A DNA stretch of 64,000 nt, from contig JAYRFK010000075.1 in the NCBI GenBank assembly GCA_041908445.1, positions 70,503 to 134,502 on the forward strand. The letters are read 5' to 3'. Each line of letters opens with the position of its first letter. Position 1 is the stretch's first letter. This document shows positions 2,952 through 48,056 of this stretch, piece by piece. Origin of the DNA: Acidimicrobiales bacterium (GTDB lineage: Bacteria; Actinomycetota; Acidimicrobiia; Acidimicrobiales; DATDAH01). The position numbers and the translations under genes are program-made. Under the pieces are notes generated by a model. The model had not been told where the DNA came from, did not search any database, and saw nothing but the letters and a program-made list of their open reading frames with translations.

Positions 2952-4001
2952 TCACCCGATCAGCCGGGCGGCGAGGGCGCCGGCCGCGCCCGCGGCCTGG
3001 AAGAAGGCGCGGTCCTGCTCGGGGCCGCGGCCCATGGTGGTCACCCGCAGGCCCTGGGCCTCGAGCAGCGCGGGCGTGTCCGGCTCGTCCACCTCGACCG
3101 CGTCGACCCGGCCCCGCGCCCCGAGCAGCGGGTGGGCGGCCACGGTGACGGGGGCGTGCACGAGGTCGAGCACCGTGCGGCTGTGGTGGCTCACCCCGCG
3201 GTGGCGCTCGCGCTGGTCGCCCTCGGAGACCCGGAGGCACATGACCGGCTGCCCGTCGAGGGCAGCGGCGGTGTCGAGGATGGTGGCCACCTCGACCGCG
3301 GTCGTGCCGAGGGTGGTGTCGGTGCCCACCACACCGGGCCCCATCCCCACGACCACGGCGTCCGCGTGGAGCTGGTGGCGGGCCAGGGCGAGGGCGGACG
3401 CGACCGTGACCGCCTCCAGGTCGCCCCCGAAGGCGTGCCCCGCGGTGACGGTGGCGTCGAGCAGGCCCTTGTCCTTCATCGAGGCCACCAGGTCGGAGAA
3501 GACCAGCGGCAGCGAGGCGCCGTCGGTCATCACGTAGACCAGCCGCGCCGAGGGGTTCGCGGCCTTCAGCGCCACCGCCACGCACGGCACCTGGCTGTGC
3601 ACGCTGCAGACCACGACGGGCAGGCCGTCGAGCCCGGTGGGCAGGTCCTCGAGGTGCTCCTCGGCCGACCCGGTGTCGGCCTGCAGGCTCGTGTAGCGCA
3701 GCTTCATGATGTGGCCCGGGCCCTTGCGCCGCCAGGACCGCCGGCTGAGGTTCCAGTGCACGACGTGCCAGCCGCCCGTGCCGAGGCCCCACTCCACCGC
3801 GGTGGTGTTGCAGACCACGTCGTCGCCCACCGCGACATCGCCGATGAGGTCGGTCAGGACGTAGGCCCGGGCCGGGCCGCCGTCGGCGCCGGCCTCCTGC
3901 CCGTCGACCTCGGGGTCGGGCTCGAGCTCGACCGCCACCCGCTGCAGGCCCGGGCGCTCGCTGAGGATCTCGGCCACGCGGCCGCTGCGGAAGGCGGGCA
4001 C
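2952..4001 (-). CDS. DUF3866-like protein of unknown function
   Basis: 349 aa. The N-terminal barrel-like region has the motif NTTAVEWGLGTGGWHVV, which I recall as typical of DUF3866. A Rossmann-like central part follows. The GTG start lies 7 nt after the pafA stop. Confidence 0.7.
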   Translation of the reverse strand: MPAFRSGRVAEILSERPGLQRVAVELEPDPEVDGQEAGADGGPARAYVLTDLIGDVAVGDDVVCNTTAVEWGLGTGGWHVVHWNLSRRSWRRKGPGHIMKLRYTSLQADTGSAEEHLEDLPTGLDGLPVVVCSVHSQVPCVAVALKAANPSARLVYVMTDGASLPLVFSDLVASMKDKGLLDATVTAGHAFGGDLEAVTVASALALARHQLHADAVVVGMGPGVVGTDTTLGTTAVEVATILDTAAALDGQPVMCLRVSEGDQRERHRGVSHHSRTVLDLVHAPVTVAAHPLLGARGRVDAVEVDEPDTPALLEAQGLRVTTMGRGPEQDRAFFQAAGAAGALAARLIG

Positions 4002-6940: not shown

Positions 6941-8401
6941 CTATCGGCTGTCCGTGGCGTCGCCGGAGTCGTCGGCGCCCTCCGCACCACCACCCGCACC
7001 ACCACCCGCGTCGCCGCCCGTGCCGCCGGCCACCGCGTCGTCGCCGCGGGTGCGGGCCCGCCAGATCAGGGCGCCGGCCGCCACCACGCCGACGGCCACC
7101 GCGCCGCCCACGAGCGGGACCGCGAGGCCGCTCCCCCCGTCGTCCCCGCCCGACCCGCCCCCGCCGTCACCACCGCCGGCGGTCGTCGCCGTCGCGGCCT
7201 GCAGCGTGGTCGTGGTGGAGGTCGCCGCCGTCGTGGCGGCCCGGAAGGGCCCGGTCACGGCGTAGCTGACCCCCCGGTTCGCGGGGCCCCCTCGCTGCGA
7301 GCCGAAGTAGAGGTGGCGGCCGTCGGGGCTGAACGCCGGCCCGGTCACCTCCGACGGGAGCCCGCCGGCGGGCACGCCCTCGTCGACGATCCGCAGGAAC
7401 GGGATCGCGTCGCCCTCGGGCGTCAGGAGGACGATCTCCATGTTCCCGCCGTCCTCGGCCACGTAGAGGTCGCCCGTCCCCGGCTCGAGGGTGAGGTTGT
7501 CCACGCCGGTCAACGCGCCGGAGCCGTCGTAGACGACCTCCACCGTCTCGGCCTCGGTGTCGTAGCGGCGGACGTGGTCGTCGCCCTTGGTCGAGAAGAA
7601 CACCGAGCCCTGGTCGAACCAGATGCCCTCGCCGCCGTCGAAGGCGGTGCTGTCGGGCACCTGCTCGCGGGTCGGCGTGTCGGCGGCGCTCGGATCGGGC
7701 ACCTCGAGCCAGGTGACCGAGCCGTCCCCCGCCACCTTCGCCACCTCCAGCGTCCCCGCGGTGAGGTCGGGGTACACCTCGGGCGTGAACCGGTAGAGCC
7801 GGCCGTCGGGGCGGTCCTCGGTGAGGTAGAGCGCCTCGCCGACGGGGTCGACGGCCACGGCCTCGTGCGGGAAGGCCCCCAGCGCGGGACGGGCCTCGGC
7901 GGTGATCTGACCGCTCGGGTCGCACTCCCACACGAGGCCACCCTCGACCTCCTCGCACGACAGCCACGCCTCCCACGGCGTCGGCCCACCGGCGCAGTTC
8001 ATGGTCGTGCCCTCGAGGATCCGCTCTGCGGCGACGATCTCGCCGTCGGCGTCGAAGGTGATGCCGCTGGCCCCGCCCTCGCCCTCCAAGGGGTTCTCGG
8101 TGTTGACCGCCAGGTGCCAGCCCCCGGCGGCGAGGGGGAAGGTGGCGGCGCCGTCGGGGAAGACGGGCCAGGTGTAGCCGGTGCCCTCGACCTCCTCGTC
8201 CGAGCGCGCGATCACCCGGGAGGTGAACCCCTCCGGGAGCACGATCCCGTTCTCGTCCGGCTCGCGACCCTCGATCGAGCCGTAGGGCCCGTCCGCGGTC
8301 GCCTGGGCGGGTGTGGCGCCGGCCGGACGCCACAGCGCCGGCGCGAGCACGGCCGCGCCGGTGGAGGCGGACACGGCCCGGAGGAAGTCCCGTCGTCGCA
8401 T
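6941..8401 (-). CDS. Tat-exported PhoX/DUF839-like beta-propeller protein with C-terminal membrane anchor
   Basis: Twin-arginine signal MRRRDFLRAVSASTGAAVLAP. PhoX-type motif NCAGGPTPWEAWLSCEE. A Thr/Gly-rich linker is followed by a hydrophobic segment (LAVPLVGGAVAVGVVAAGALIW) and a basic/acidic tail. Confidence 0.75.
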   Translation of the reverse strand: MRRRDFLRAVSASTGAAVLAPALWRPAGATPAQATADGPYGSIEGREPDENGIVLPEGFTSRVIARSDEEVEGTGYTWPVFPDGAATFPLAAGGWHLAVNTENPLEGEGGASGITFDADGEIVAAERILEGTTMNCAGGPTPWEAWLSCEEVEGGLVWECDPSGQITAEARPALGAFPHEAVAVDPVGEALYLTEDRPDGRLYRFTPEVYPDLTAGTLEVAKVAGDGSVTWLEVPDPSAADTPTREQVPDSTAFDGGEGIWFDQGSVFFSTKGDDHVRRYDTEAETVEVVYDGSGALTGVDNLTLEPGTGDLYVAEDGGNMEIVLLTPEGDAIPFLRIVDEGVPAGGLPSEVTGPAFSPDGRHLYFGSQRGGPANRGVSYAVTGPFRAATTAATSTTTTLQAATATTAGGGDGGGGSGGDDGGSGLAVPLVGGAVAVGVVAAGALIWRARTRGDDAVAGGTGGDAGGGAGGGAEGADDSGDATDSR

Positions 8402-10224: not shown

Positions 10225-12009
10225 CTAGAGGTACTGGCCGGTGGCCATGCGCTCGATGGCACGGCCGCCGGTCGGGTCCTCGTCGTCCTTGGTGATGAGG
10301 GTGCGCACGTACACGATGCGCTCGCCCTTCTTGCCCGAGATCTTGGCCCAGTCGTCCGGGTTGGTCGTGTTGGGCAGGTCCTCGTGCTCCTTGTACTCCT
10401 GGTGGATGGAGGCGATGAGGTCCTCGGTGCGGATGCCACGGTCGCCGTCGTTGATGAGGCGCTTGATGGCCCGCTTCTTGGCCCGGCGGACGATGTTCTC
10501 GATCATGGCCCCGGACGAGAAGTCCTTGAAGTACATGATCTCCTTGTCACCGTTCTGGTAGGTGACCTCGAGGAATCGGTTCTGGTCGTCGGTGCGGTAC
10601 ATCTCCTCGACCGTGTCCTCGATCATGGCCCGCACGGCCTTCTCGGGGTCGCCGCCACCGAGGGTCTCCACCTCGCCGGCGTCGAGGGGCAGGTCGGCGA
10701 CGAGGTAGCGGCTGAAGATGGACGCCGCCGCGGTCTCGTCGGGGCGCTCGATCTTGATCTTCACGTCGAGCCGGCCCGGGCGCAGGATGGCCGGGTCGAT
10801 GAGGTCCTCGCGGTTGGAGGCGCCGATGACGATGACGTTCTTCAGGGTCTCGACGCCGTCGATCTCGGCGAGCAGCTGCGGGACGATGGTCGACTCCATG
10901 TCCGAGCTGATGCCGGTGCCGCGGGTGCGGAACAGCGAGTCCATCTCGTCGAAGAAGACGATGACGGGCCAGCCCTCCTCGGACTTCTCCCGGGCCCGCT
11001 GGAACACGAGGCGGATCTGGCGCTCGGTCTCGCCGACGTACTTGTTGAGCAGCTCGGGGCCCTTGATGTTGAGGAAGTAGCTGCGGGCCTCGGAGTCGCC
11101 GGACACCTCGGCCACCTTCTTGGCCAGCGAGTTGGCCACCGCCTTGGCGATGAGGGTCTTGCCGCAGCCCGGCGGGCCGTAGAGCAGGATGCCCTTGGGC
11201 GCCGGCAGCTGGAACTCGGCGAAGAGGGCCTGGTGGACGAACGGCAGCTCGACCGCGTCGGTGATCTGCTCGATCTGGTCGTCGAGGCCGCCGACGTCCT
11301 CGTAGGAGATGTCGGGCACCTCCTCGAGCACGAGCTCCTCGACCTCGGGCCGGGGCAGGCGCTCGAGCAGCAGGCCCGAGCGGGCGTCCATCAGGACCGC
11401 GTCGCCGGCGCGGAGCTTCTGGCCCTGGAGCGAGTCGGCCAGCTCGGCCACCCGCTCCTCGTCGGCCCGGCCCGCGATGAGGGCGCGCTTGCGGTCGGGC
11501 AGGAGCTCCTTCAGGGTGACGACCTCGCCGGTGACCTCACCGCTGCGGGCCAGCACGACGTTCAGCGACTCGTTGAGGACGACCTCGGCGCCGCGCTCGA
11601 TCTCGGTGTCGGCGATCTCCGGGTGCAGGGCGACGCGCATCTTGCGCCCGCCGGAGAACACGTCGACGGTGCCGTCGTCGTTGCGGCCGAGCAGGGTGCC
11701 GTAGGCCGACGGCGGCTGGGTCAGCTTGTCCACCTCTTCGCGCAGCGTGGCGATGTGCTCGCGCGCCTCGCGCAGCGTGTAGGTCAGCTTCTCGTTCTGG
11801 GAGACGGCCTGGGCGAGCTGGCCCTTGGTCTCGAGCAGGCGCTCCTCCAGCGTGCGGACGCGCTTGGGCGCCTCCTGGAGCCGGCGCCGCAGGGAGGTGA
11901 CCTCCTCCTCCAGCACCGCGGCCTGCCCCCGCAGCTCGTCGAGCTCGGCTTCGTATGAGGCCAGCCGCCGTTCGGTCTCGTCCTTGCTGACGGCAACCAC
12001 CTCCTCCAT
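10225..12009 (-). CDS. mpa: proteasome-associated AAA+ ATPase Mpa/ARC
   Basis: N-terminal coiled coil, OB domains, Walker A GPPGCGKT, Walker [10 protein letters not shown], and a C-terminal GQYL proteasome-docking motif. I chose ATG 12009 as the start; the ORF is open up to 12210. Confidence 0.93.
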
Positions 12010-12024
12010 CTCGCCTGACGCGGG

Positions 12025-12052
12025 ACGATACACGGGCGACCGGGCGATGCAA
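12025..12052 (-). promoter_or_regulatory. candidate sigma-70-type promoter for mpa
   Basis: On the minus strand: TTGCAT, a 16-nt spacer, then TATCGT, with the -10 ending 15 nt before ATG 12009. This implies a very short leader. It lies in a locally lower-GC stretch. Confidence 0.3.
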
Positions 12053-12209
12053 CGGAGCCAGCCGGCGTTCACGTTCCCGTCACGCGGGGCCTGCCCGGGC
12101 CGCGACAATTGCACGGGATTTCCGTGTTTATCGGTGCGAGCGGCTAGAGTGTGGGCAACCAGCAACCGTCCGGGGGCCCTGGCCCCACAGCGTGAGAGGA
12201 CAACCCCCA

Positions 12210-12443
12210 ATGAAGGTCTGGATCGATCAGGATCTCTGCACCGGTGACGGCCTCTGCGAGGAGATCGCGCCTGACGTCTTCACCCTCCTCGACGACGGCC
12301 TGGCCTACGTCAAGGAAGGCGACAAGGTCTTCAGCGACCCGGGTGGCCCCGAGGGCCTCGCCGCGGTGCCCGCGGGCCAGGAGGAGGCGGTCATCGAGTC
12401 CGCCGAGGAGTGCCCCGGGGAGTGCATCTTCATCGAGATGTGA
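12210..12443 (+). CDS. single-cluster ferredoxin (CxxDxxC...CP type)
   Basis: [21 protein letters not shown]...[19 protein letters not shown] Shine-Dalgarno lies 9 nt upstream of ATG 12210. Confidence 0.8.
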
Positions 12444-12477
12444 TCTCTGCTCGCGTCAGCGAGCTTCTGCCAGGAGC

Positions 12478-12511
12478 GCCGGTCCCCTCGGGGGCCGGCG
12501 TTCTTGGTTTT
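12478..12511 (+). terminator. intrinsic terminator after the ferredoxin gene
   Basis: The gccggtcccc / gggggccggc stem (one G-U pair) is followed by ttcttggtttt. Confidence 0.55.
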
Positions 12512-12542
12512 CCCGGCGGCGTTCACCTGAACGCCGGCGCCG

Positions 12543-13703
12543 TCAGGACAGGCAGGGTCCGGCGTCGACGGGGGTGGTGAGGTCGCCGGCGAGCACGGCG
12601 CGGAGCTCGGCGTCGGTGAGGGCGTAGCCCACGTTGTCGCGGTCGGGGGCGATCGCGAAGGCCACGCCGACGACCTCGCCGTCGGCGTCGACGAGGGCCG
12701 AGCCCGAGTCGCCGGGCGCGAGGTCGGTGGCGAGGAGGAACACCTCCCGCTCGGTGGCGTTGCGGTCGTAGATGTCCGAGCCCCGGGCCTGGACCTCCTG
12801 GGCGATCTCGTAGGGCGAGATCTCGAGGGGCCCGCCACCCGGGTGGCCGTAGACGCCGCCGACGTCACCCTCGTCGGCGTCACCGAGGGAGAGCGCGGGG
12901 CGGTCGAGGCCCGGTGCCGACAGGACGGCGAGGTCCCGCTCGGGGTCGAACGCCACCACGTCGGCGGAGACCCGGGTGCCGTCGCTGCGCTCGACCTCGG
13001 TCGAGTCCTCCCCCGCCACCACGTGGGCGTTGGTGACGACGAGGTCGTCGCCGACCACGAAGCCGCTCCCGTCCTGGAGGCGGTCGCAGGCCACCCCCTC
13101 GACCTTCACCGTGGACTCGACGACCCGAGCCGAGACCTCGGCGGAGATGCCGGTGGCCGCCGGCGGGGCGCCCACGTCGGGGGCGGGCTCGAGCGCGTCG
13201 AACACCTCGGGGAAGCGGTCCTCGCCCACGAGCTGGCGCAGGGCCAAGAACGCGTCCGGCGCCTCCGGCAACGAGTCGTGCAGCCAGCCGGCGAGCTCGG
13301 ACTGGCGGGCCTGGCGGGCGGGCCAGCCCGGGACGCTGGCCATGGTCGGCAGGATCAGCCACAGCAGCACGAGCACGCCGGCCATGCCCGCCAGCGCCCC
13401 GGCGACCTGGTCGAGGGCCTGGCCCCTGCCGGTCTCGATGCCGAGGCGGAGCTGGCCGCCGATGACGAGGCCCAGGGCCTGGCCGAGGAAGGCGCCGGCG
13501 AAGAGCACCGCCACCGCCAGGAAGAGCAGCGCCTGGTCGTCCCAGTCGACCTTCTCGAGGATGCGGGGCAGCAGCAGCGCCGCCACCAGCAGTCCCACGG
13601 CCATGCCCGCCCACGACGTCGACCGGGCGACGAAGCCCATGCGGAACCCGCCGACCGCTGCGGCCACCACGGCCACGAGCAGCAGCAGGTCGAGGGCGTT
13701 CAC
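12543..13703 (-). CDS. MarP-like membrane serine protease (CvpA-type TM domain + trypsin-like domain)
   Basis: Four N-terminal TM helices, then an S1 protease with TNAHVV (His) and GDSGSALVD (Ser). Confidence 0.8.
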   Translation of the reverse strand: MNALDLLLLVAVVAAAVGGFRMGFVARSTSWAGMAVGLLVAALLLPRILEKVDWDDQALLFLAVAVLFAGAFLGQALGLVIGGQLRLGIETGRGQALDQVAGALAGMAGVLVLLWLILPTMASVPGWPARQARQSELAGWLHDSLPEAPDAFLALRQLVGEDRFPEVFDALEPAPDVGAPPAATGISAEVSARVVESTVKVEGVACDRLQDGSGFVVGDDLVVTNAHVVAGEDSTEVERSDGTRVSADVVAFDPERDLAVLSAPGLDRPALSLGDADEGDVGGVYGHPGGGPLEISPYEIAQEVQARGSDIYDRNATEREVFLLATDLAPGDSGSALVDADGEVVGVAFAIAPDRDNVGYALTDAELRAVLAGDLTTPVDAGPCLS

Positions 13704-13708
13704 GGCCC

Positions 13709-14482
13709 TCAGGAAGAGAGCAGGCGGGCGTGGGTGAGGAAGCCCGTGTGCGCCACCATGCGGTGGTCGGGTCGCACCGACTGGCCTTCGATGTGCCAGC
13801 TCCGGTTCAGCACCTCGAGGGTCTCCTCCATGCCGAAGGCCGAGTCCGCCAGGGCCTCCCGCAGCTGGCGGGCCTGGAGGATGCTCGGCGTGTACGCCAC
13901 GAGGATGCCACCCGGGTGCAGCGCCTTGGCCGCGTGGGGCACCACCTGCCAGGGCTCGGGCAGGTCGAGGACGATGCGGTCGAGGTCCTCGAGGTCGATC
14001 CCCTCGTAGGTGTCGCGCACCTCGACCCGGTAGCGGTCGGCGGCCGAGTCGCCGAGGAAGGCCTCGACGTTGTGCTGGGCGCGCGCCGCGAAGTCCTCCC
14101 GGACCTCGTAGCCGGTGACGTCGGCGCCGGCGCGGAGCATGGTCATGGACAGCGCCCCGGAGCCCACGCCGGACTCGAGCACGCGCGCCCCGGGGAAGAT
14201 GTCGGCCAGGAGGAGGAGCGGCCCGAGGTCCTTCGGGTAGATCACCTGGGCGCCGCGCGGCATCTTGAACACGAAGTCCGAGAGCGTGGGCCGGATGGCG
14301 GTGTAGCGGGCCCCCATGGTGGAGCGCACCGTGACGCCCTCGCGCGCCCCGAGCAGCTCGGCGTGCGGGAGGATGCCGGCGTGGCTGTGGAACTCGCCGC
14401 CCTCGGCCAGGGTGACGAGGTAGCGGCGCTTCTTGGCGTCGATGAGCAGCACGCGGTCCCCCGCGGCGAACGGGGCGCTCAC
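13709..14482 (-). CDS. trmI: tRNA (adenine58-N1)-methyltransferase TrmI
   Basis: GCD14/TrmI pattern: PRGAQVIYPKD, VLESGVGSGALS, VLDLPEPW. The GTG start is embedded in the stop of the upstream thiolase gene (GTGA). Confidence 0.85.
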   Translation of the reverse strand: MSAPFAAGDRVLLIDAKKRRYLVTLAEGGEFHSHAGILPHAELLGAREGVTVRSTMGARYTAIRPTLSDFVFKMPRGAQVIYPKDLGPLLLLADIFPGARVLESGVGSGALSMTMLRAGADVTGYEVREDFAARAQHNVEAFLGDSAADRYRVEVRDTYEGIDLEDLDRIVLDLPEPWQVVPHAAKALHPGGILVAYTPSILQARQLREALADSAFGMEETLEVLNRSWHIEGQSVRPDHRMVAHTGFLTHARLLSS

Positions 14483-15444
14483 CCGGGCCGCCGCCCGATG
14501 GTCAGCGGCTGGGGGCCATCGCCGACGGGACGGGGGGTGCCGCCGGCCCGCTCGACGAGGCGGCAGAACGCGCACACCTCGGTCGGGGTCGGGGCGCCGC
14601 ACACCGCGCAGGCCACGAGCTCGGCGCGGTCCTCCTCGGCCTCCGGGGTGAAGTGGTCGGCCACCCGGCTGAGGAAGCCGAAGTAGAAGTCGTGCTTGGT
14701 GCCCGGCGAGGTGGCCTCGATGGCGTCGAGGGCCTCCTTGTAGCCGAGGTGGCGGTTGCCCGCCGCCATCGGGCACTCCTCGACGAGGTAGTCGATGCCC
14801 CGCACGACGCAGTAGGCGGCGGTCTCGCGCTCGCCGAGGCGCACCAGCGGCTTCACCTTCTTCGGGAAGCCCTGGCGGGCGGGCAGGACCGGCTGCTGGC
14901 GCCCCAGGTAGTCGGTCTGCCAGCGCAGCACGTTGCCGAACAGCACGGCGGCCTCGTCGTCGAGGTTGTGGCCGGTGGCGAGCACGTCGTAGCCGTGGTC
15001 GAGCGCGGCCTTGTCGAAGACGTGGCGCTTGGACATCCCGCAGGCGGAGCACGGCGCCCGCCGGGCGGCCCGCGAGCCGTCGGGGATGTCGTAGCCGTAC
15101 TCGGCCGGCAGGTCGACCTCGAGCAGCTCGACGCCCCGGCGGGCGGCGAAGGCGCGGGCGTGCTCGGCCGACGCGTCGCTGTAGTCGCCGATGCCGAGGC
15201 CCACGTAGAGCCCGCCCACCTCGATGTCGAGGCCGAGGTCGAGGAGCAGGTCCCACAGGGCGAGCGAGTCCTTGCCGCCGGAGACCGCCACCAGGACCCG
15301 GTCGCCCCGCTCGAACATGTCGTGGTCGTGGATGGCCTTGGCCACCTGGTCGCGGCACAGCTTCAGGAAGTGCTCGACGCAGAAGTTGGCGTTGTGGCGA
15401 CGGACGTCGATCACCGCCGGCTCGCGGCAGACGCGGCACTTCAC
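14479..15444 (-). CDS. ttuA: TtuA-type tRNA 2-thiolation PP-loop ATPase (N- and C-terminal zinc fingers, Fe-S cysteines)
   Basis: Motifs seen: CRVC...CVEH, PP-loop SGGKDS, CSAC plus EECP (cluster ligands), and CAVC...CAFC. GGGAGG Shine-Dalgarno before GTG 15444. Confidence 0.75.
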   Translation of the reverse strand: MKCRVCREPAVIDVRRHNANFCVEHFLKLCRDQVAKAIHDHDMFERGDRVLVAVSGGKDSLALWDLLLDLGLDIEVGGLYVGLGIGDYSDASAEHARAFAARRGVELLEVDLPAEYGYDIPDGSRAARRAPCSACGMSKRHVFDKAALDHGYDVLATGHNLDDEAAVLFGNVLRWQTDYLGRQQPVLPARQGFPKKVKPLVRLGERETAAYCVVRGIDYLVEECPMAAGNRHLGYKEALDAIEATSPGTKHDFYFGFLSRVADHFTPEAEEDRAELVACAVCGAPTPTEVCAFCRLVERAGGTPRPVGDGPQPLTIGRRPG

Positions 15445-15463
15445 GAGACGCGACCTCCCCGGC

Positions 15464-15664
15464 TCACGCGGCGCCGCCGGAGATGACGGGGCGGATCTCG
15501 ACGTCGGCGTCGTCGGGCAGGATGGCGTCGGCCGGCACCAGCGTGTCGCCGGCGATCACCAGCACCGACTCGCGGCGGACGTCGAGCCGCTGGAGCAGCG
15601 CCACCACGCTCATCGGGCCCGGCACCTCGAGCTCGCGGCGGGGGTTGCGGAGCAGGACCCTCAC
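15464..15664 (-). CDS. ThiS/MoaD/TtuB-like beta-grasp sulfur-carrier protein, C-terminus ...VISGGAA
   Basis: 66 aa. It ends EIRPVISGG followed by two extra Ala, and lies 19 nt upstream of the TtuA-like gene. The GTG start overlaps the upstream stop (GTGA). Confidence 0.65.
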   Translation of the reverse strand: MRVLLRNPRRELEVPGPMSVVALLQRLDVRRESVLVIAGDTLVPADAILPDDADVEIRPVISGGAA

Positions 15665-15894
15665 GACCGGCCGCCGCGGCGCGTGCGCCGCTCGGGGGTG
15701 GCTTCGCGGCGCAGGACCACGCTCTCGCCCGGGAGGAGCTCCTCGCGGTAGACGACGACCTCGCTGCGGCCGGCGGCCTTGTTGAGGAAGTGCAGGCCCC
15801 AGGCGAGCGCCCCGAGCATCAGCCAGGCCCGTCGGCCCTCGAAGAGGCCCCGCTCGATGCCCGCCCTGCGGATGAAACGGAGGACGGCGCCCAT
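15661..15894 (-). CDS. small membrane protein (1 TM), unknown function
   Basis: 77 aa with the hydrophobic segment AWLMLGALAWGLHFL. It is chained by 1-4 nt overlaps to both neighbours. Confidence 0.5.
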   Translation of the reverse strand: MGAVLRFIRRAGIERGLFEGRRAWLMLGALAWGLHFLNKAAGRSEVVVYREELLPGESVVLRREATPERRTRRGGRS

Positions 15895-16103
15895 CAGACC
15901 CGGCGGATCTCCACGATCGTCTTCTGGAGCTTGCCGCGGCGGCGCCCGAAGTAGAAGGCGGCCACGGCGACGACCGCGACGACCACGACGCCGGCCACCA
16001 GGGCCACGTTGCGGGCGGTCTCGCCGGCCTCGTCGACCTCGCCCTGGACCTCGCGGAAGCGGGCCTCGATGTCGTCGCGGGTGATGCGGGTGGCGGCGGT
16101 CAC
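15894..16103 (-). CDS. small membrane protein (N-terminal helix + 1 TM), unknown function
   Basis: 69 aa with the TM segment VALVAGVVVVAVVAVAAFYF. GTGA overlap with the upstream gene. Confidence 0.5.
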   Translation of the reverse strand: MTAATRITRDDIEARFREVQGEVDEAGETARNVALVAGVVVVAVVAVAAFYFGRRRGKLQKTIVEIRRV

Positions 16104-16441
16104 GACGTGGTCCCCTTGGGTTTGCGGTTGACGGCCTTGAGCGCCAGGTAGGTCACCCCCGACGCGACCAGCAGGGTGATCAGGTAGGGCACCCAGGACC
16201 AGTTGCCGGTCAGTGGGCTGCCGGTCTCGGTCTGGAGGAGGCGGAGCAGGGCGATGGTGAGCTCGATGGCGCCGATGCCGATCAGGAACATGGCGGCGGC
16301 GCCGTAGCCCACGAAGCGACCGAGGCCCTTGAGGGGGTCGACCGTCTCCTGCTTGGCGTACGCGACCAGCAGGTCCTTGATGTCGCCGAACTGCGCGACC
16401 GGGTCGTGCTTCGCGCCCGGTCGGTTCGTGCTCGTCGCCAC
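16100..16441 (-). CDS. small 2-TM membrane protein (actinobacterial Holin-X/DUF1469-like)
   Basis: 113 aa with two hydrophobic helices (GYGAAAMFLIGIGAIELTIALL and PYLITLLVASGVTYLAL). The family assignment is from memory only. Confidence 0.5.
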   Translation of the reverse strand: MATSTNRPGAKHDPVAQFGDIKDLLVAYAKQETVDPLKGLGRFVGYGAAAMFLIGIGAIELTIALLRLLQTETGSPLTGNWSWVPYLITLLVASGVTYLALKAVNRKPKGTTS

Positions 16442-16514
16442 TGCGCTCCTCAGTCGTCGTCGGCCGGGGTCGGACCGCCCGGTGGGCCCACCCTACCCGT
16501 GGGGCCGTGGCCGC

Positions 16515-17135
16515 TCACCCCGAGAGGCGGGCCTCGAGGACCTCGGCCTCCTCGGCGAAGAGGGTGCGCAGGAGCTCGAGTCGGGGCAGGGCGCCGTCGG
16601 TGGCCAGCACCCGCCGCTGGTCGAGCGGGCCGAGGGGCCCGACCGCCGCGGCTTGGAACGACGCGAGGCCCGGGTCCTCGTCCAGCTCGATGGTGGCGGG
16701 GACCGACGACTCCCCCAGCTCGGCCTTCAGGGCCACCGAGCGGCGGAACGGGCCGAGCATCGCCGCGAGGGCGGCGGACGCGGCGCCGGGGTCGGTCGCG
16801 TCGGCGTCGGGCCAGTCGTGCACGTCCGCCCGCGGGTAGGGGTCGTCGGGCAGCCACTCGTCGACGACGATGCGCCGGACGCCGACGGCCACGAGGCCGA
16901 ACCGGCCGTCGGGGTACTCCTCGGCCTCGACGATGCGGGCGACGGTGCCCACGTCGGTGCGCACGTCACCGCCGCCCACCTCGCTCCCCCGCTCGATCAG
17001 CACGACCCCGAACTCGCGGTCGCCGGCGAGGCAGTCCCGGGCCAGCGCCCGGTAGCGCTCCTCGAACACGTGCAGGGGCAGCACCATCGTGGGGAACAGC
17101 ACCGACCCCAGCGGGAACATCGCCAGCTTGGCCAT
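16515..17135 (-). CDS. stand-alone Lon N-terminal (LON substrate-binding) domain protein
   Basis: The opening LAMFPLGSVLFPTMVLPLHVFEERYRAL is typical of the Lon N-domain. There is no AAA+ or protease part. Confidence 0.75.
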   Translation of the reverse strand: MAKLAMFPLGSVLFPTMVLPLHVFEERYRALARDCLAGDREFGVVLIERGSEVGGGDVRTDVGTVARIVEAEEYPDGRFGLVAVGVRRIVVDEWLPDDPYPRADVHDWPDADATDPGAASAALAAMLGPFRRSVALKAELGESSVPATIELDEDPGLASFQAAAVGPLGPLDQRRVLATDGALPRLELLRTLFAEEAEVLEARLSG

Positions 17136-17272
17136 CAGCGGAGGCTAGAACTCGCCGGCGCCGAGCGACCGGCTCAGCACCCGTTCCCGGCTGAGGGCGA
17201 GCGTCGGACGGTGCGGGGAGCGAGGGACGAGCGAGCCATGACGATGTGATGAGGCGCCAGCCGAAGAACGGT

Positions 17273-18328
17273 TCAAAACGCGTCGAAGTCGAGCAGCTCG
17301 AAGGTGTCGAAGGTGGCGGGGGCCTGGGGGCCGGCGTCCTCGAGGTCCATGCCGAGGAACGCCGACGCCTCGTCGCGGGCGATGAACAGCAGGTTGAGCG
17401 GCGCCGGCTGCACCCCCTTGGGGATGGCGATGCCCTTCACCGGGACGTGGACGTTGAAGCCGGCGTAGATCGCCATCGGCACCCGGTGGTGGCGCATCGC
17501 CGCCGCGATCACCTTGCGGGCCGACCGGGGACCGGGCGCCGGGCCCCGCGGCAGGAGCTTCAGGACGACCGCCAGGGGCACGCCCTTGGCCGTGGCCCGG
17601 GTCGTCACCGCCACCACCGAGTCGTCGGCGTGCACGGCGTAGCCGGCGCCGGGCGCGGCCAGCCGCCAGGCGAGCTGCTCCGGGGTCCAGCGCTGGGTCC
17701 ACCCGTCGGCCGGCGCCTCGTCGAGGCCGGCGGTCAGCCGGGCGAAGTCGGCACTGGCCCGGAACCCGTCGGTGACCGCGTGGCTCTCGACCCGACGCCC
17801 ACCACCGAGGCGCGGGATGGCCACGACCGGCAGGCTGGTGATGAGGCGGGCGCCGATGCGGTGCAGGCCGGGCATGGTCGAGTTCTCGTTGGTGACGCCG
17901 ATGCCCCCGATGAGCCCGCCGAGCTCCTCCTTGCGCTCGATGGCCCGCTTGGTGGCCCGGGCGGTGAGGGCGACGAAGTGCATGCTGCCGAGGCCCGATC
18001 GGGTGACGGCGTTGACCGACAGCACGAAGGTGGCCTGCTCCTCGCGGTTGCGCCACGGCTGGGGCACCAGGGCGAAGTGGGCCACGCGGGCGCCCTTGCG
18101 GTCGACGTCCTCCTCGATGGCCGGGTGGTGCGGGTTCTCCCGGTACAGCCAGTGCAGGAAGGTGGTGTCCTCGAAGCGGTCGGCGTCGGGGTGCTCACGC
18201 CGGAGCAGCGCCGCGGTCGCGGCCAGGTCGTCCGGGGCGTCGGCGGCGGTCTCGGCGCGGCCGTTCCCGGCCTGAGCCGTCTCGTCGGCGTCGGCGTCGG
18301 CGTCGGCGTCGGTCGGTGGCGGGGTCAC
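17273..18328 (-). CDS. GNAT-family acyltransferase, paralogue 1
   Basis: R-x-G-x-G acyl-CoA loop (VTRSGLGSMHF). The C-terminus FELLDFDAF is shared with the neighbouring paralogue. The start is a GTG in a GTGA overlap. The N-terminus contains TDADADADADE. Confidence 0.65.
   Translation of the reverse strand: MTPPPTDADADADADETAQAGNGRAETAADAPDDLAATAALLRREHPDADRFEDTTFLHWLYRENPHHPAIEEDVDRKGARVAHFALVPQPWRNREEQATFVLSVNAVTRSGLGSMHFVALTARATKRAIERKEELGGLIGGIGVTNENSTMPGLHRIGARLITSLPVVAIPRLGGGRRVESHAVTDGFRASADFARLTAGLDEAPADGWTQRWTPEQLAWRLAAPGAGYAVHADDSVVAVTTRATAKGVPLAVVLKLLPRGPAPGPRSARKVIAAAMRHHRVPMAIYAGFNVHVPVKGIAIPKGVQPAPLNLLFIARDEASAFLGMDLEDAGPQAPATFDTFELLDFDAF
18284..18313. repeat. in-frame hexanucleotide microsatellite (GTCGGC)x4 plus one variant unit
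   Basis: Read directly from the sequence. It encodes the (Asp-Ala)n tract at the N-terminus of GNAT paralogue 1. Confidence 0.8.
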
Positions 18329-19269
18329 AGCGCGTCGAAGTCCAGCAGCTCGAAGCAGCGCAGCTGCACCTCGTCCTGGGGCAGCCCCTCGATGTCCTCG
18401 CCGACCGCGACCGACGCCCGGTCCGCGCCGAAGAGCACCAGGTTGAGCGGGGACGGCAGCAGTCGGCGGGGCACGGCCACGCCCGGCATCGGCACGCGGT
18501 GGTTGAAGCCGACGTAGACCGCGGCCGGCGAGCGGTCCCGGCGGCACGCCGCCGCCACCAGCCGGGCACCCGCCCGGCGGCTCGGCACGGCGGCGCGGGC
18601 CAGCAGCTTCAGCACCACCGTGACGGGGACGCCGCGGTAGCGGAGCCGGGTGGTGACCGCGGCCGCGTCCTCGCTCACGTGGACGCGGTACGCGGCCGCC
18701 GGGTTGGCCAGGCGCCAGCGCAGCACGTCACCGGACCAGTCCTGGGCCCAGCCGTCGTCGGGCGGCGGGGCCAGCGAGGCGGCCAGGGCGGCCACCTCGT
18801 CGCCCTCGAGCCAGGCCGGGGTCACGTCGTGGGTGACGACCGCACCGCCACCCGGGGACACCGGCCGCACCACCACCGGCAGCGGGCCGAGGTCGCCGAT
18901 CCCCGTGCGGGTCACGGTCATGGCCGTCGACGCCGCGTTCGTCACGCCGAAGCCGGCCACCACGCCGCGTCGGCCCATCTCGCGGATGCCCCGCCGGAGC
19001 AGAGCGAGGAAGTGGGCCTGGCCGACGCCCGCCCGGGTCACCCCGTTGACGCCGACGCAGAACTCGGCGCGCTCGTCGCCCCGCGCCCACCGCTGCGGCA
19101 GCAGCGCCACGTGCGACACCCGTTCGCCCTTGCGGTCGACGCTCTCCTGGATGGCGCTGCCGACCGGGTTCTCCTCGTACAGCCACTCGAGGTAGCCCGG
19201 CGTCCGGAAGCACTCCCGATCGGGGTGCTCCGCGGCGAGCAGCGCGGCCGTGGCGTCCAGGTCGCTCAC
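18325..19269 (-). CDS. GNAT-family acyltransferase, paralogue 2
   Basis: Collinear with 17273-18328 (WLYEENP..., VTRAGVGQAHF, ...FELLDFDAL). The GTG start is embedded in the stop of the GT-C gene (GTGA). Confidence 0.65.
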   Translation of the reverse strand: MSDLDATAALLAAEHPDRECFRTPGYLEWLYEENPVGSAIQESVDRKGERVSHVALLPQRWARGDERAEFCVGVNGVTRAGVGQAHFLALLRRGIREMGRRGVVAGFGVTNAASTAMTVTRTGIGDLGPLPVVVRPVSPGGGAVVTHDVTPAWLEGDEVAALAASLAPPPDDGWAQDWSGDVLRWRLANPAAAYRVHVSEDAAAVTTRLRYRGVPVTVVLKLLARAAVPSRRAGARLVAAACRRDRSPAAVYVGFNHRVPMPGVAVPRRLLPSPLNLVLFGADRASVAVGEDIEGLPQDEVQLRCFELLDFDAL

Positions 19270-20702
19270 CGGGTCGCCACCCGCTCGTCGGTCCGGGTCG
19301 CCGGGTCGGCGGCCCCACCCGGCGGCGCCGTCGCCCCGCGTTCCTTGGCCGCCGCCTTGGTGCGGGCCGGTCCCCGCAGCCACCGCCAGGCCGCGTCCAG
19401 GGCGATGCCGGACAGGATCACCAGGCCCAGGTCCACCGGGAAGCGGTAGCGGGTGATGCCGATGGCGACCGCCGCGGTCAGCGTCACGAGGAGCGCGAGC
19501 GAGAGGAAGGGCAGGATCGGCACCGCTCGCCGCCGCAGCACCACCAGACCGGCGATGCCGAGCGCGAGCAGTTCGTAGTAGAGGATCAGGCCGGTGGTGG
19601 CGACGGCCCGGCCGCGGCCCTCCACCACGGTGTCGAGGGTGATGCTCTGCCCGGGCCGGTAGACCCCCCAGATCCGGCCCACCCGGGCGGCGGACACGAC
19701 GGCGGCGCGTCCGGGCCGTGACTCGATGTAGTCGAGGCCCCGGTGCAGGCCGATGTCGGCGGCGTCGGACTCGTCGCCGTCACCCAGCCACTCGATGCCC
19801 TGCCGCGCGATGACCTCCATGTCGGGGTTCCGGGCGGCGACCTCGGGGATCTCCTCGGCGCTCGGGAAGGCGCACTTGCCGCTCCAGTAGCCGAGCAGGG
19901 GCCCGTCGTAGGTCTGGTCGCAGTTGGCCTGGGGCAGCACGCCCGCCGCGCCGTAGGACAGGAAGACCGGCTGGTCGAAGCGGGCCAGGTTGTGCAGGAT
20001 CCACGGGCTGATCACCAACCAGTAGGTGGCCCCGGCGACCACGACGAGCAGCACCCGCCGCTTCCAGGCCAGGCCCGGCACCAGCACCGCCAGGGGCAGG
20101 GCCAGCAGCAGGAGGAGGTTGGAGGCCTCGGCCCGGGTGAGGGCGGCCAGCGCGATGGCGCCGCCGAGCACCGCCATGCGCCGCCACCCGGGATCGTCGT
20201 AGACCCGGTAGGCGGCGAACAGGACGAGGCAGAGCGTGACGCCGTAGAGGGGCTCGGACAGGATCAGGCCGTCGTTCACCCACAGCAGCGGGTACAGCCC
20301 GGCGAGGACCGCGGCGATCAGCCCGGCGCGGTCGCCCGCTCCCGGACCGCCGGCGAGGCGCCGGGCCAGCAGGCCCACGAGGGCGACCGTGACCGCGCCC
20401 GCGAGGCACGAGATCACCCGGTGCGCGAGCGGGCTGTCGAAGCCGAGGACCGACGGGACCGCGAGGTACAGCGAGTACAGCGGCGGGTGGTGGGCGGCTT
20501 GGACGTTCACCCCGGCGTAGACCCAGGCGATGGGGCTCGTGAACCCGTCGCCCTGGCTCAGCGACAGCGCCTGGTTGTGGAAGTAGAAGCCGTCGCCCAC
20601 GGGCTCGTCGTTGCCGTGGACGCCGATGGCGTAGGCCAGCCGGAGCGCGAGCGCGCCGGCGGTGACCAGGCCCAGGCGGAGCCGGAAGGCCCGCTCAGGC
20701 AC
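19266..20702 (-). CDS. GT-C fold glycosyltransferase (PMT/ArnT-like), paralogue 1
   Basis: Polytopic membrane protein with the early loop DEPVGDGFYFHNQA, multiple TM helices and a periplasmic Cys-containing loop. Confidence 0.7.
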   Translation of the reverse strand: MPERAFRLRLGLVTAGALALRLAYAIGVHGNDEPVGDGFYFHNQALSLSQGDGFTSPIAWVYAGVNVQAAHHPPLYSLYLAVPSVLGFDSPLAHRVISCLAGAVTVALVGLLARRLAGGPGAGDRAGLIAAVLAGLYPLLWVNDGLILSEPLYGVTLCLVLFAAYRVYDDPGWRRMAVLGGAIALAALTRAEASNLLLLLALPLAVLVPGLAWKRRVLLVVVAGATYWLVISPWILHNLARFDQPVFLSYGAAGVLPQANCDQTYDGPLLGYWSGKCAFPSAEEIPEVAARNPDMEVIARQGIEWLGDGDESDAADIGLHRGLDYIESRPGRAAVVSAARVGRIWGVYRPGQSITLDTVVEGRGRAVATTGLILYYELLALGIAGLVVLRRRAVPILPFLSLALLVTLTAAVAIGITRYRFPVDLGLVILSGIALDAAWRWLRGPARTKAAAKERGATAPPGGAADPATRTDERVATR

Positions 20703-41451: not shown

Positions 41452-41572
41452 GCCGAGAGGGTGGATCGGTGCGATCGAACATCCCTGCGCCGGCATGACC
41501 CGGATCAGGTTCGTACGGTCGGGGGCCGGTCAGCCCACCCTCTCAGCCCGGTCCACCGGGCTCCCGTGTTCT
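41452..41572 (-). promoter_or_regulatory. TPP (thiamine pyrophosphate) riboswitch
   Basis: The minus strand reads ...cacgggagcccggtggaccgggCTGAGAgggtgggctgaccggcccccgaccgtacgAACCTGATCCGGgtcATGCCGGCGcAGGGAtgt... This matches the universally conserved THI-box cores (CUGAGA and ACCUGAUCnGGnuaAUnCCnGCGnAGGGA). Confidence 0.85.
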
Positions 41573-41614
41573 GGGGCGACCGTACCACCGCGTCGGCGCC
41601 GCTCCGCCGGTCCG

Positions 41615-46174: not shown

Positions 46175-46479
46175 CAGTCGTCCAGCCGGGTGCCGTGTGG
46201 TCTGTAGACCGACGCGACGTCGCCGAGGAGCACCGACTGCCGGGACCCACCGCCCACCTCGAGCACCAGCCGGTTGGCCGCCTCGTCGACGTCGACCACC
46301 CGTCCCGTCTCGGAGCGCATGCTCTTGGGGCCGAGGTACACGGTGACCGTCCGGCCCCGGTGGTGGCGCAGGAGTTCGGCCCGCGCCCGGCGCGCCCGGG
46401 GCAGCGACCATCGCCCCCGCACGATCGCCGCCACCAACACGGCGACCGCGGCGATCCCGATCACGACGCGAACGGTCAC
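46171..46479 (-). CDS. small membrane-anchored protein
   Basis: 102 aa with an N-terminal TM segment (VVIGIAAVAVLVAAIV) followed by a soluble beta-rich part. It is translationally coupled to lipoprotein A. Confidence 0.5.
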   Translation of the reverse strand: MTVRVVIGIAAVAVLVAAIVRGRWSLPRARRARAELLRHHRGRTVTVYLGPKSMRSETGRVVDVDEAANRLVLEVGGGSRQSVLLGDVASVYRPHGTRLDDW

Positions 46480-46617
46480 CCCGAGATGCTCCCACGTCCC
46501 GCAACGGTCGAGGGGTCCTCCGACCGCGAGCCCGGGCGCGCCGGTGGGGCCGCGCGGGGCGGCCTCACCTGGGCTGGTGTCGGGTCGGGGGTCTCGGGTG
46601 AGCGGTGGGGGCCCGGG

Positions 46618-47901: not shown

Positions 47902-48056
47902 CGATCAGACAGGAAAAGGCAGCCAGCACTCCAGGCCCCGCTCGTGGCGGCCGGCCCGATACTTCGCCCGTGCTGTGGACTGCGGCGCCGTCTCAGCGCC
48001 GATCAGGGCTGCGAACTGATGTTCGATACCGTAGCCGACAACACCCACCCCCGCAA

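Follow-up and report, generated by a model that had tools for sequence, protein, structure and literature searches.

The sulfur modification of U54 in the tRNA T-loop is known from Thermus thermophilus, where TtuA and TtuB, with TtuC and TtuD, produce 2-thioribothymidine-54 (s2T54). TtuB-COSH is the sulfur donor and TtuC is its E1 (PMC6225789, PMC5372739), and 2-thiolation of U54 needs m1A58 to be efficient (PMC7912444). In the archaeal SAMP2/UbaA/NcsA and eukaryotic Urm1/Uba4/Ncs6 systems the enzymes act on U34, and the carriers double as protein modifiers linked to the proteasome. Precursor carriers trimmed by JAMM peptidases are represented by QbsE/QbsD of thioquinolobactin synthesis in Pseudomonas and by actinobacterial CysO/Mec+, in which extra residues after Gly-Gly are removed before adenylation and the peptidase gene is clustered with that of the carrier. 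A literature search found no paper on T-loop modification in Acidimicrobiia.

The locus described here lies in a 64-kb stretch of DNA from a bacterium of the Acidimicrobiales (the window). A first-pass annotation had proposed a chain of seven minus-strand genes, and every coordinate and junction of this chain holds: it runs from 16441 to 12543, and its genes overlap by 1-4 nt or stand no more than 19 nt apart. The features of the locus are as follows.

16515..17135 (-): LON N-terminal (substrate-binding) domain-only protein (LonN), immediately upstream of the chain; Pfam PF02190, E 4e-31
16100..16441 (-): sm113, small membrane protein, 113 aa, PF07332 'Holin-X'-like; 4-nt overlap with sm69
15894..16103 (-): sm69, single-pass membrane protein, 69 aa, of an unnamed family (ITRDDIEAK...TM...GRRxGRKRxTVVEIRRV); 1-nt overlap with sm77
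15661..15894 (-): sm77, small, fast-evolving single-pass membrane protein, 77 aa (RRGLxGGSRxW, TM, EVVYRE.L.PGE); 4-nt GTGA overlap with ttuB
15464..15664 (-): ttuB-like ubiquitin-fold sulfur carrier, 66 aa, ending VISGG-AA (Pfam, PDB, AF2/Foldseek, synteny); 19-nt spacer before ttuA
15467..15472 (-): GCC GCG (Ala-Ala), the two codons after Gly-Gly; a C-terminal extension that is not conserved
15454..15460 (-): GGGGAGG in the spacer between ttuB and ttuA, resembling a Shine-Dalgarno site and lying 9 nt ahead of the GTG of ttuA (direct sequence reading)
14479..15444 (-): ttuA, orthologue of the [4Fe-4S]/PP-loop tRNA 2-thiouridine(54) synthetase, 321 aa (PDB, NCBIfam, residues); 4-nt GTGA overlap with trmI
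13709..14482 (-): trmI, tRNA m1A58 methyltransferase, 257 aa (Pfam GCD14 plus TrmI-like_N); 5-nt gap to marP
12543..13703 (-): marP, membrane-anchored MarP-family serine protease, 386 aa (NCBIfam NF033740)
12192..12443 (+): single-cluster ferredoxin (fdx), 83 aa, divergent from mpa and convergent with marP (Pfam Fer4_15, E 1.7e-17)
10225..12210 (-): mpa/arc proteasomal ATPase, C-terminus GQYL (ORF translation); the true start is probably near 12009

All frames of the chain have a GC3 of 0.95-0.99, which supports coding, and an independent gene call on a related 3.1-Mb contig (L081) gives the identical chain.

In a phmmer search of the PDB, the ttuA product matches T. thermophilus TtuA (5GHA/5B4E) over residues 1-298 with E 1e-85 and 292 bits; beyond TtuA, it matches PH0300 (E 8e-69) and NcsA (E 9e-28, about 1e-27; 101 bits). 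Profile comparison of 14479-15444 likewise ranks TtuA first, with 258 bits against 118 for NcsA in NCBIfam, and the TtuA score lies below the equivalog cutoff of 450 bits of a model built on Pyrococcus-type sequences. TtcA, which scores 64 bits against the 258 of TtuA, was rejected as an identity. The hallmarks claimed for this protein were all found: the first zinc finger (C3, C6, C22, H25), the PP-loop SGGKDS at 55-60, the Fe-S ligands C132-S-A-C135 plus C224, and the second zinc finger (C279, C282, C291, C294). These positions are invariant in 81 sequences, as is K139, the counterpart of T. thermophilus K137.

The 66-aa protein does end VISGGAA and scores 24.2 bits against Pfam ThiS, exceeding the gathering cutoff of 22.5. 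Its best PDB sequence match is T. thermophilus TtuB, and the top five PDB matches of its AF2 model (pLDDT 91.5, with residues 64-66 below 50) in Foldseek are all TtuB chains (TM 0.85-0.86, rmsd 1.1-2.0 Å). Judged by this modeled fold together with the sequence matches, 15464-15664 is a TtuB orthologue. The assignment of TrmI, made previously with its GTGA overlap, agrees with both Pfam and PDB matches (Rv2118c, E 7e-60; T. thermophilus TrmI, E 7.5e-45). The existing automatic annotation already carries the names 'tRNA-5-methyluridine54 2-sulfurtransferase' and 'sulfur carrier protein' at this locus.

In 80 independent Acidimicrobiia genomes, whose TtuA proteins are 61-75% identical, the genes recur in one order (LonN, three small membrane proteins, ttuB, ttuA, trmI, marP, fdx, mpa), which is far beyond a chance arrangement. 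The ttuB gene lies upstream of ttuA in 80/80 loci, trmI is present in 79/80, and ttuB/ttuA and ttuA/trmI both have a median junction of -4 nt. The T-loop modification unit proposed earlier, a TtuA-type enzyme, a TtuB-type β-grasp carrier and TrmI, is a conserved one, and ttuB-ttuA-trmI is essentially an ordinary operon predicted to serve T-loop sulfur and methyl modification. In the literature s2T54 is described only in thermophiles, yet the genomes carrying this locus come from sludge, soil, sea water and cold sites.

The link of the three small membrane proteins and MarP to the tRNA unit is also conserved across the class. LonN lies upstream in 52 of the 80 loci. The window's sm113 scores 24.0 bits against PF07332, short of the gathering score of 28.4; 39 of 42 orthologues match this family at E ≤ 0.01 (best E 8e-9), and the gene is found in 78 loci. 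No Pfam family matched sm69 in a Pfam search, and those of its 1552 homologues with a named source are hypothetical proteins of Acidimicrobiales; it is present in 68 loci. By tblastn sm77 is detected in 21/80 loci only, and, of the 68 loci with sm69, most have an ORF of sm77-like design between sm69 and ttuB; in L081 the counterpart is called as a 63-aa gene. MarP (64/80 loci) scores 317.8 bits against NF033740 (cutoff 250) and has Pfam Colicin_V and Trypsin_2 domains. Contigs of four metatranscriptome runs (Logan) cover the whole of 11.9-17.4 kb and span the marP/trmI, trmI/ttuA, ttuB/sm77/sm69 and sm113/LonN junctions, the last by a contig at 16229-16730; these RNA contigs carry no strand information and could contain contaminating DNA. 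The tRNA unit is co-located and apparently co-transcribed with LonN, the three small membrane proteins and MarP. A stress-responsive promoter shared by the tRNA unit and the surrounding membrane and protease genes is our guess.

We lean slightly towards reading the arrangement as a positional juxtaposition, in which an Acidimicrobiia-specific envelope module (LonN, sm113, sm69, sm77, MarP) shares a transcript with ttuB-ttuA-trmI, the membrane proteins and MarP having no mechanistic part in tRNA thiolation; this concerns the coupling at the operon level and not the identity of the tRNA genes. Overlaps are tight inside the modules (sm113/sm69, -4; sm69/sm77, -1; ttuB/ttuA and ttuA/trmI, -4), and the median gap is 53 nt both from sm77 to ttuB and from LonN to sm113. 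MarP is missing from 16/80 loci, where trmI abuts fdx-mpa, and sm69 belongs to no named family. The protease domain of MarP follows an N-terminal membrane (Colicin_V) domain, and MarP of M. tuberculosis is periplasmic; MarP therefore cannot reach the cytoplasmic TtuB. Against juxtaposition stand the retention of the order in nearly all 80 genomes despite the divergence of TtuA noted above, the junctions of the window and L081, which are all overlaps or very short, and the RNA contigs that cross the module boundaries.

The mpa gene lies about 1.7 kb from trmI, with only marP and the divergent ferredoxin gene between them, and a complete dop-pup-prcBA-pafA-pafBC cluster follows downstream. The ferredoxin gene recurs in 60/80 loci (75-96% identity) and mpa in 59/80 (69-85%). 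Because trmI directly adjoins fdx-mpa in several marP-less relatives, the unit's nearness to mpa is best attributed to where trmI lies, not to the carrier. In M. tuberculosis, too, trmI (Rv2118c) presumably adjoins mpa (Rv2115c). As claimed earlier, there is no gene for an E1 or a JAMM peptidase in the window, as judged by Pfam scans of about 58 ORFs (practically every predicted gene as far as about 56 kb) and six-frame motif scans of all 64 kb, nor is there one within 10 kb in 80 relatives. A rhodanese partner was likewise not found in the window or the flanks of relatives, and the pathway as seen at the locus is incomplete.

These observations bear on the idea that the carrier serves, chiefly or in addition, as a ubiquitin-like modifier, as do SAMP2 and T. 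thermophilus TtuB, acting alongside or feeding the Pup-Mpa-proteasome system, with tail removal as the activation switch. The carrier matches SAMP2 profiles weakly (Pfam, E 9.5e-4; NCBIfam, E 1.2e-3), the SAMP2 structure fits its model at TM 0.73, the TtuA lysine to which TtuB is conjugated in T. thermophilus (K137; PMC3980101) has an invariant counterpart here, K139, and one report associates archaeal NcsA with proteasome components (PMC4048286). The adjoining Pup-proteasome cluster would fit such a role, but it is already complete and canonical, with a Pup ending GGQ, and its adjacency is accounted for by trmI. Since E1 and JAMM genes are absent from the searched regions, and K137 is also conserved in lineages for which only self-regulation of TtuA has been proposed, we consider a modifier role unlikely.

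The GG-AA tail had been presented as a defined feature of the carrier, and this did not stand: across 80 loci and 120 homologues the residues after Gly-Gly vary (AA, AT, AR, AE, none), so that Ala-Ala is one of the forms taken by an unconstrained extension, which is 0 to about 32 residues long and mostly two. The stop of ttuB overlaps the start of ttuA in 56 loci, and exactly two tail codons, which place the Gly-Gly codons 5 nt before the ttuA start, occur in 44/56 of these against 8/23 non-overlapping loci (Fisher p 5e-4); tail-less carriers number 1/56 against 7/23 (p 5e-4), and GGG or GGA encodes the penultimate Gly (GGRGG) in 32/44 (73%) of the overlapping loci with two extra codons against 7/23 non-overlapping loci and a baseline of 31.6% in neighboring genes (binomial p 2.5e-8), although these p-values, drawn from related genomes, overstate independence. 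The enrichment of GGRGG (73% vs 32%) therefore predicts that the Gly-Gly codons of overlapping loci act as the ribosome-binding (Shine-Dalgarno) site of ttuA, and the two-residue tail most likely reflects gene overlap and not a special signal.

That the tail is instead a selected pro-peptide, or is tolerated and never removed (with TtuA using free sulfide and TtuB having another role), seems quite improbable. A tail is carried by 71/79 scorable loci and 119/120 close homologues, Ala is the commonest first residue (36/52), and TtuA can use sulfide in vitro (PMC6225789). The Ala bias, however, is expected from GCN codons at 74% GC, the length and sequence are unconstrained, and the tail is tied to the overlap geometry and the Shine-Dalgarno-forming Gly codons. 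The carrier body and SGG are invariant (21 columns), which indicates that the Gly-Gly end is the part used; as encoded, the carrier cannot expose a Gly-Gly carboxylate, and C-terminal trimming is therefore needed, in agreement with the earlier claim. Thiolation of wobble U34 instead of U54 is highly unlikely: NcsA/Ncs6 share the architecture and Ubl dependence of TtuA, and s2T54 is regarded as a thermophile trait whereas s2U34 is universal, but the enzyme is far nearer to TtuA than to NcsA (PDB, 292 vs 101 bits; NCBIfam, 258 vs 118) and its translation is coupled to that of trmI, the source of m1A58, which helps to determine thiolation at position 54.

With a probability of roughly three in four, then, ttuB-ttuA-trmI would be a translationally coupled tRNA T-loop modification unit whose carrier is made as a precursor with an overlap-derived tail. 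For the tRNA position, the use of the thiocarboxylate, the removal of the tail and the kind of peptidase and E1 involved, we infer the following course. TrmI would methylate N1 of A58. TtuA, a PP-loop ATPase that has two zinc fingers and binds a [4Fe-4S] cluster through three Cys residues, would adenylate C2 of U54 (or m5U54) and exchange its oxygen for sulfur from a thiocarboxylate on the Gly at the C-terminus of TtuB, which would be charged by an E1-like adenylyltransferase and a sulfur source, both encoded elsewhere in the genome. The precursor's residues after Gly-Gly, free of sequence constraint, would owe their existence to the overlap or abutment of ttuB with ttuA: the Shine-Dalgarno sequence of ttuA would, in most relatives, be formed by the Gly-Gly codons (GGR GGN), two further codons would supply a spacer of 5-6 nt, and the TGA stop of ttuB would lie inside the (A/G)TGA start of ttuA. 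The window genome may later have gained the 19-nt spacer with its own GGGGAGG site while keeping the two Ala codons. Before activation, a peptidase encoded at an unlinked site would trim the tail, and the JAMM/MPN+ type is the most plausible for it.

Compared with T. thermophilus, the two zinc fingers, the PP-loop, the three Cys [4Fe-4S] ligands and the conserved Lys after CxxC of TtuA are shared, as are the 64-residue β-grasp core of TtuB ending ISGG, the position of ttuB immediately upstream of ttuA and the functional link to m1A58. The differences are that the host here belongs to an actinobacterial class of mostly mesophilic members, that a variable extension follows GG in the encoded carrier but not in T. 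thermophilus TtuB, that trmI is in the same operon as ttuBA, and that the E1, rhodanese and JAMM partners were not located within the searched flanks. QbsE/QbsD and CysO/Mec+ likewise have a β-grasp carrier with extra residues after Gly-Gly, but here no peptidase gene lies within 10 kb in 80 genomes, and the extension, absent from about 10% of orthologues, is traceable to the geometry of translational coupling. A Ubl carrier and an Fe-S PP-loop thiolase are also combined in the SAMP2 and Urm1 systems, although NcsA and SAMP2 resemble the proteins of this locus much less than TtuA and TtuB do. The best PDB match of TrmI is Rv2118c of M. tuberculosis, which we take to adjoin the proteasomal ATPase gene as it does here, and MarP lies above the cutoff of the family to which Rv3671c belongs. 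M. tuberculosis presumably has no ttuBA at its trmI-mpa locus and has marP elsewhere in the genome, whereas Acidimicrobiia pack ttuBA, the small membrane proteins and marP beside trmI.

The chain of seven minus-strand genes described in the first-pass annotation is borne out by the ORF list and by a GC3 coding check, in which its frames score 0.95-0.99. The genes, together with their immediate neighbours, are as follows.

16515-17135, LonN, LON N-terminal-domain protein gene upstream of the chain
16100-16441, minus strand, sm113, small membrane protein of 113 aa
15894-16103, minus strand, sm69, small membrane protein of 69 aa
15661-15894, minus strand, sm77, small membrane protein of 77 aa
15464-15664, minus strand, ttuB, carrier of 66 aa
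14479-15444, minus strand, ttuA, thiolase of 321 aa
13709-14482, minus strand, trmI, TrmI of 257 aa
12543-13703, minus strand, marP, MarP of 386 aa
12192-12443, plus strand, single-cluster ferredoxin of 83 aa, divergent from mpa, downstream of the chain

Adjacent genes overlap by 4, 1, 4, and 4 nt, except that 19 nt separate carrier from thiolase and 5 nt separate trmI from marP. The carrier starts at a GTG within GTGA and begins MRVLLR, in agreement with the MRVVLR at the start of T. thermophilus TtuB, and residue 3 from the TrmI start aligns to residue 5 of Rv2118c. Further downstream follow mpa (ending GQYL), dop, pup (ending GGQ), a PhoX-like ORF, prcB, and prcA, and after prcA come pafA, a DUF3866 gene, pafB/pafC, and a signal peptidase. 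GC content is 69-78% throughout the window, whose closest relatives are metagenome-assembled genomes of Acidimicrobiia (labeled Microthrixaceae, Iamiaceae, Ilumatobacteraceae, and Acidimicrobiales); the best match to the window proteins in the protein collection searched is 93% identical. The exact sequence of 13709-16441 is present in ~20 activated-sludge and wastewater metagenomes, and the host is therefore a mesophilic wastewater actinobacterium.

Several features of the wider window may be recorded here. The PhoX-like ORF (PD40 beta-propeller, ~486 aa, 6941-8401, minus strand) is inserted between pup and prcB, and the gene for the DUF3866 protein (2952-4001, minus strand, E 2e-99) separates pafA from the pafB/pafC WYL regulators. 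On the other side of the chain, 17273-18547 and 18325-19383 (minus strand) encode tandem paralogues with 45% identity over 307 aa, both ending ELLDFDA(F/L) and neither with a Pfam match; next in line come two PMT_2 glycosyltransferase-like membrane proteins and an S13 D-Ala-D-Ala carboxypeptidase. A DUF222 protein stands between two DUF6174 paralogues at 45275-49120 (minus strand), a segment that may be mobile or recently duplicated.

All the residues that the first-pass annotation had named for a TtuA-type thiolase were found. The ligands of the first zinc finger (C3, C6, C22, H25) and of the second (C279, C282, C291, C294) are invariant in 81 sequences, save that the fourth N-terminal ligand, residue 25 (window 15370-15372), is His in 63 and Cys in 18 of the 81 Acidimicrobiia TtuAs. 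Pfam TtuA_LIM_N also matches the protein (E 6e-10). SGGKDS at residues 55-60 and the [4Fe-4S] ligands C132, C135, and C224, which align with C130, C133, and C222 of T. thermophilus TtuA, occur in 81/81, and Lys139, the equivalent of T. thermophilus K137, is likewise invariant in the 81 sequences. A search of the PDB returned a full-length match to T. thermophilus TtuA (292 bits, E 1e-85), followed by P. horikoshii TtuA (PH0300; 236 bits, E 8e-69), and a weak match to NcsA (101 bits, E 9e-28). Against the NCBIfam profiles the thiolase ranks TtuA first (TtuA 258, NcsA 118, TtcA 64 bits) and does not group with TtcA, the outcome singled out beforehand as the main argument against the assignment. 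At 258.5 bits it falls below the 450-bit cutoff of the TtuA equivalog model (NF049949), mainly because of its distance from the archaeal sequences, the model name being of the Pyrococcus type. By these sequence comparisons the thiolase is a predicted TtuA (TtcA/TtuA group II), with NcsA/Ncs6 and TtcA more distant than characterised TtuA.

The carrier scores 24.2 bits against a Pfam ThiS threshold of 22.5, and its best sequence match in the PDB is TtuB. An AlphaFold (AF2) model built with 42 homologues has a pLDDT of 91.5, with only residues 64-66 disordered, and the five best PDB structures found with it by Foldseek are all TtuB chains (TM 0.85-0.86, rmsd 1.1-2.0 Å), ThiS, MoaD, and SAMP2 coming next at TM 0.69-0.75. 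The comparison with ThiS, MoaD, and TtuB proposed in the first-pass annotation thus yields a beta-grasp fold with TtuB as its nearest relative, in sequence and in structure. TrmI contains PF08704 (GCD14, E 2e-26) and PF14801 (TrmI-like N-terminal, E 1e-19) and is closest to M. tuberculosis Rv2118c (E 7e-60) and T. thermophilus TrmI (7.5e-45) in the PDB. MarP reaches 317.8 bits with NF033740 (cutoff 250) and combines PF02674 (Colicin_V) with a chymotrypsin-like domain, PF13365.

The gene order is conserved far beyond this genome. A scan with one genome per species gave 459 relatives, of which the best 80 loci were kept (TtuA identity 61-75%); these come from Acidimicrobiia-type genomes, a few carrying other or generic taxon labels. 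Gene presence was scored by tblastn with the window proteins in loci with 10-kb flanks. Among these best 80 of 459, ttuB lies directly upstream of ttuA in 80/80 and trmI directly downstream in 79/80, and sm113 is present in 78, sm69 in 68, marP in 64, the divergent ferredoxin in 60, mpa in 59, and LonN in 52, the lower counts being due in part to contig ends. The sm77-type ORF is too divergent for detection by tblastn; of the 68 loci with sm69, most have a small ORF of this design filling the gap between sm69 and ttuB. Median junctions are -4 for sm113/sm69, -1 for sm69/sm77, and +53 for LonN/sm113 on the left, and -4 for ttuB/ttuA, -4 for ttuA/trmI, and +9.5 for trmI/marP on the right, with +53 between sm77 and ttuB. 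There are therefore two tightly coupled blocks, almost always adjacent, which overlap each other in the window and in one related locus (L081). No protein of the neighbourhood is more conserved than the ferredoxin (75-96% identity in the loci that have it), which nearly always stands between marP or trmI and mpa; in locus L059 it is on the opposite strand.

The Gly-Gly of the encoded carrier is not at its very C-terminus: SGG is invariant, and in the window two alanines follow. The first-pass annotation took this "GG-AA" as a defined tail, a view that did not hold, as the residues after the invariant ISGG vary freely from 0 to ~32 and are tied to the ttuB/ttuA overlap. In the best 80 of 459 loci they are AA in 12, AT in 10, none in 9, A in 4, AR in 4, and AE in 3, with many singletons including CC, HR, FE, and AW, and the longest tails have 8 to ~32 residues; two extra residues of varied identity occur in 103 of 120 closer homologues. 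The usual junction reads ...ATC TCS GGR GGN NNN NN(A/G) TGA, in which the (A/G)TG start of ttuA overlaps the ttuB stop. Exactly two extra codons, a length that leaves 5 nt between the Gly-Gly codons and the ttuA start, are found in 44/56 overlapping versus 8/23 non-overlapping loci (Fisher p 5e-4), and tail-less carriers in 1/56 versus 7/23 (p 5e-4). Of the 44 overlapping two-codon loci, 32 use GGG or GGA for the penultimate Gly (giving GGRGG); the baseline from neighbouring genes is 31.6% (binomial p 2.5e-8), and the non-overlapping loci have these codons in 7/23. These p-values are optimistic because the counts come from related genomes; the pattern is consistent. The Gly-Gly codons may thus double as the Shine-Dalgarno sequence of ttuA, with the two extra codons as a spacer and the tail as a side effect of translational coupling. 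The window itself has GGC GGC GCC GCG TGA followed by the 19-nt spacer, with GGGGAGG 9 nt before the GTG: here, as in a minority of the genomes, the spacer is separate, and the two Ala codons are simply kept. A few loci carry long extensions after Gly-Gly (~15-32 aa; listed with L024:1017-1310, L063, and L078), L016 has duplicated ISGG segments, and in L035 (9802-9936) ttuB seems frameshifted or degenerate, without an SGG end.

In ThiS, MoaD, and TtuB the thiocarboxylate forms on the terminal Gly only (PMC6225789), so the TtuB tail must still be trimmed. On the strength of this chemistry the proposal that the carrier needs C-terminal processing stands, and it is the fold and Gly-Gly, not the tail, that the trimming enzyme must recognise. 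No ThiF/MoeB, JAMM, or rhodanese was found in Pfam scans of ~58 window ORFs, which cover the predicted genes up to ~56 kb, the remainder being covered by motif scan only. Six-frame searches with patterns for E1 (D.D.V..[ST]NL.RQ) and JAMM (HxHx7-10SxxD) gave no real matches in the full 64-kb window or in the 80 loci with 10-kb flanks, a weak negative that agrees with the absence of an E1-like or JAMM gene from the window noted at first reading. T. thermophilus TtuC and actinobacterial MoeZ and Mec+ are analogues for unlinked partners, and by this analogy shared, unlinked enzymes are likely to act on TtuB. Two linked candidates for the tail peptidase were rejected. By Pfam, the LonN protein lacks any protease domain. 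MarP carries its protease domain behind a membrane domain; in M. tuberculosis that protease domain is periplasmic, and if the same holds here, MarP cannot trim TtuB.

In relatives without marP (e.g., loci L016, L037, L048, and L057), trmI directly abuts the ferredoxin gene and mpa. In M. tuberculosis, trmI (Rv2118c) lies three genes from mpa (Rv2115c); a literature search found no open paper tying Rv2118c to mpa. The simplest history is one in which an ancestral trmI would have stood beside the Pup-proteasome cluster and ttuBA would have joined trmI later, in Acidimicrobiia; given such an ancestry, the juxtaposition of a Ubl with Pup would be incidental. A role of TtuB as a protein modifier is possible by analogy, because K139 is conserved and TtuB conjugates TtuA in T. 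thermophilus (PMC3980101).

Of the small membrane proteins, sm113 scores 24.0 bits against the gathering threshold of 28.4 for PF07332 'Actinobacterial Holin-X', a family matched by 39 of 42 sm113 orthologues (best E 8e-9). sm69 belongs to an unnamed family of ~1,550 sequences, whose source-named members are Acidimicrobiales hypothetical proteins, and sm77 is a fast-evolving single-pass protein. The conserved end of sm69, TVVEIRRV-stop, looks like the last TtuB strand (VVEIRPV-ISGG), probably by coincidence. The linkage of these proteins and MarP to ttuBA is conserved and its reason unexplained; a purely positional or co-regulatory link is more probable than a mechanistic one.

Four activated-sludge RNA runs gave contigs that together span 11.9-17.4 kb at low, fairly even depth and cross the marP/trmI, trmI/ttuA, ttuB/sm77/sm69, sm77/sm69/sm113, and sm113/LonN boundaries, so that the small ORFs of the chain are present in RNA libraries. 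This coverage fits one long transcript, the Logan contigs being unstranded and DNA carry-over possible. Just upstream of LonN, at 17052-17400 (intergenic 17136-17272), contig word depth is ~10x that of the operon in two runs of one study (X28 and X36); this stretch may be the 5' leader or start site of the operon, or a small RNA. Folding of the 140-nt stretch upstream of LonN gave no structure signal (z-score +0.6). Scans of 12000-17400 gave no promoter; the single terminator-like site lies within sm69 and is at chance level. At 74% GC these scans are uninformative. Rfam and tRNA scans gave nothing in the region. The sole Rfam match in the window, at 41.5 kb, is a TPP riboswitch (41464-41577, minus strand, 64.8 bits) upstream of an operon for an ABC permease, an NMT1/THI5-like binding protein, and an ATPase that runs from 41496 down to 38253.

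We give a probability of about one in four to the following overall reading: 2-thiolation of U54/T54 would be constitutive across a largely mesophilic-to-cold bacterial class, an inactive TtuB precursor matured by an unlinked peptidase would gate thiolation and possibly conjugation, and transcription would be tied to an envelope and proteostasis supercluster of LonN, the small membrane proteins, MarP, and the Mpa-Pup-proteasome genes. Judged from the sequences, three points appear modestly novel: the class-wide occurrence of the system in non-thermophiles, its physical fusion with trmI, and a precursor carrier whose tail is explained by gene overlap. The rest is routine annotation, public pipelines already labeling ttuA 'tRNA-5-methyluridine54 2-sulfurtransferase' and the carrier 'sulfur carrier protein'. 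For annotation more generally, short variable residues after Gly-Gly in Ubl and sulfur-carrier genes can stem from translational coupling; they should not be taken as specific pro-peptides, yet they imply a trimming activity.

Reviews describe TtuA/TtuB and s2T54 only from thermophilic bacteria and archaea (PMC7912444, PMC3980101), and a literature search found no paper linking Acidimicrobiia to tRNA thiolation. The 2-thiolation of U54/T54 has so far been treated as an adaptation of thermophiles; if the tRNA of Acidimicrobiia carries s2U54/s2T54, the modification cannot be a heat adaptation alone, and what it does in mesophiles would call for an explanation. In Thermus, m1A58 has been shown to promote U54 thiolation (PMC7912444), a dependence for which the fusion of trmI to ttuBA provides clean genomic support.
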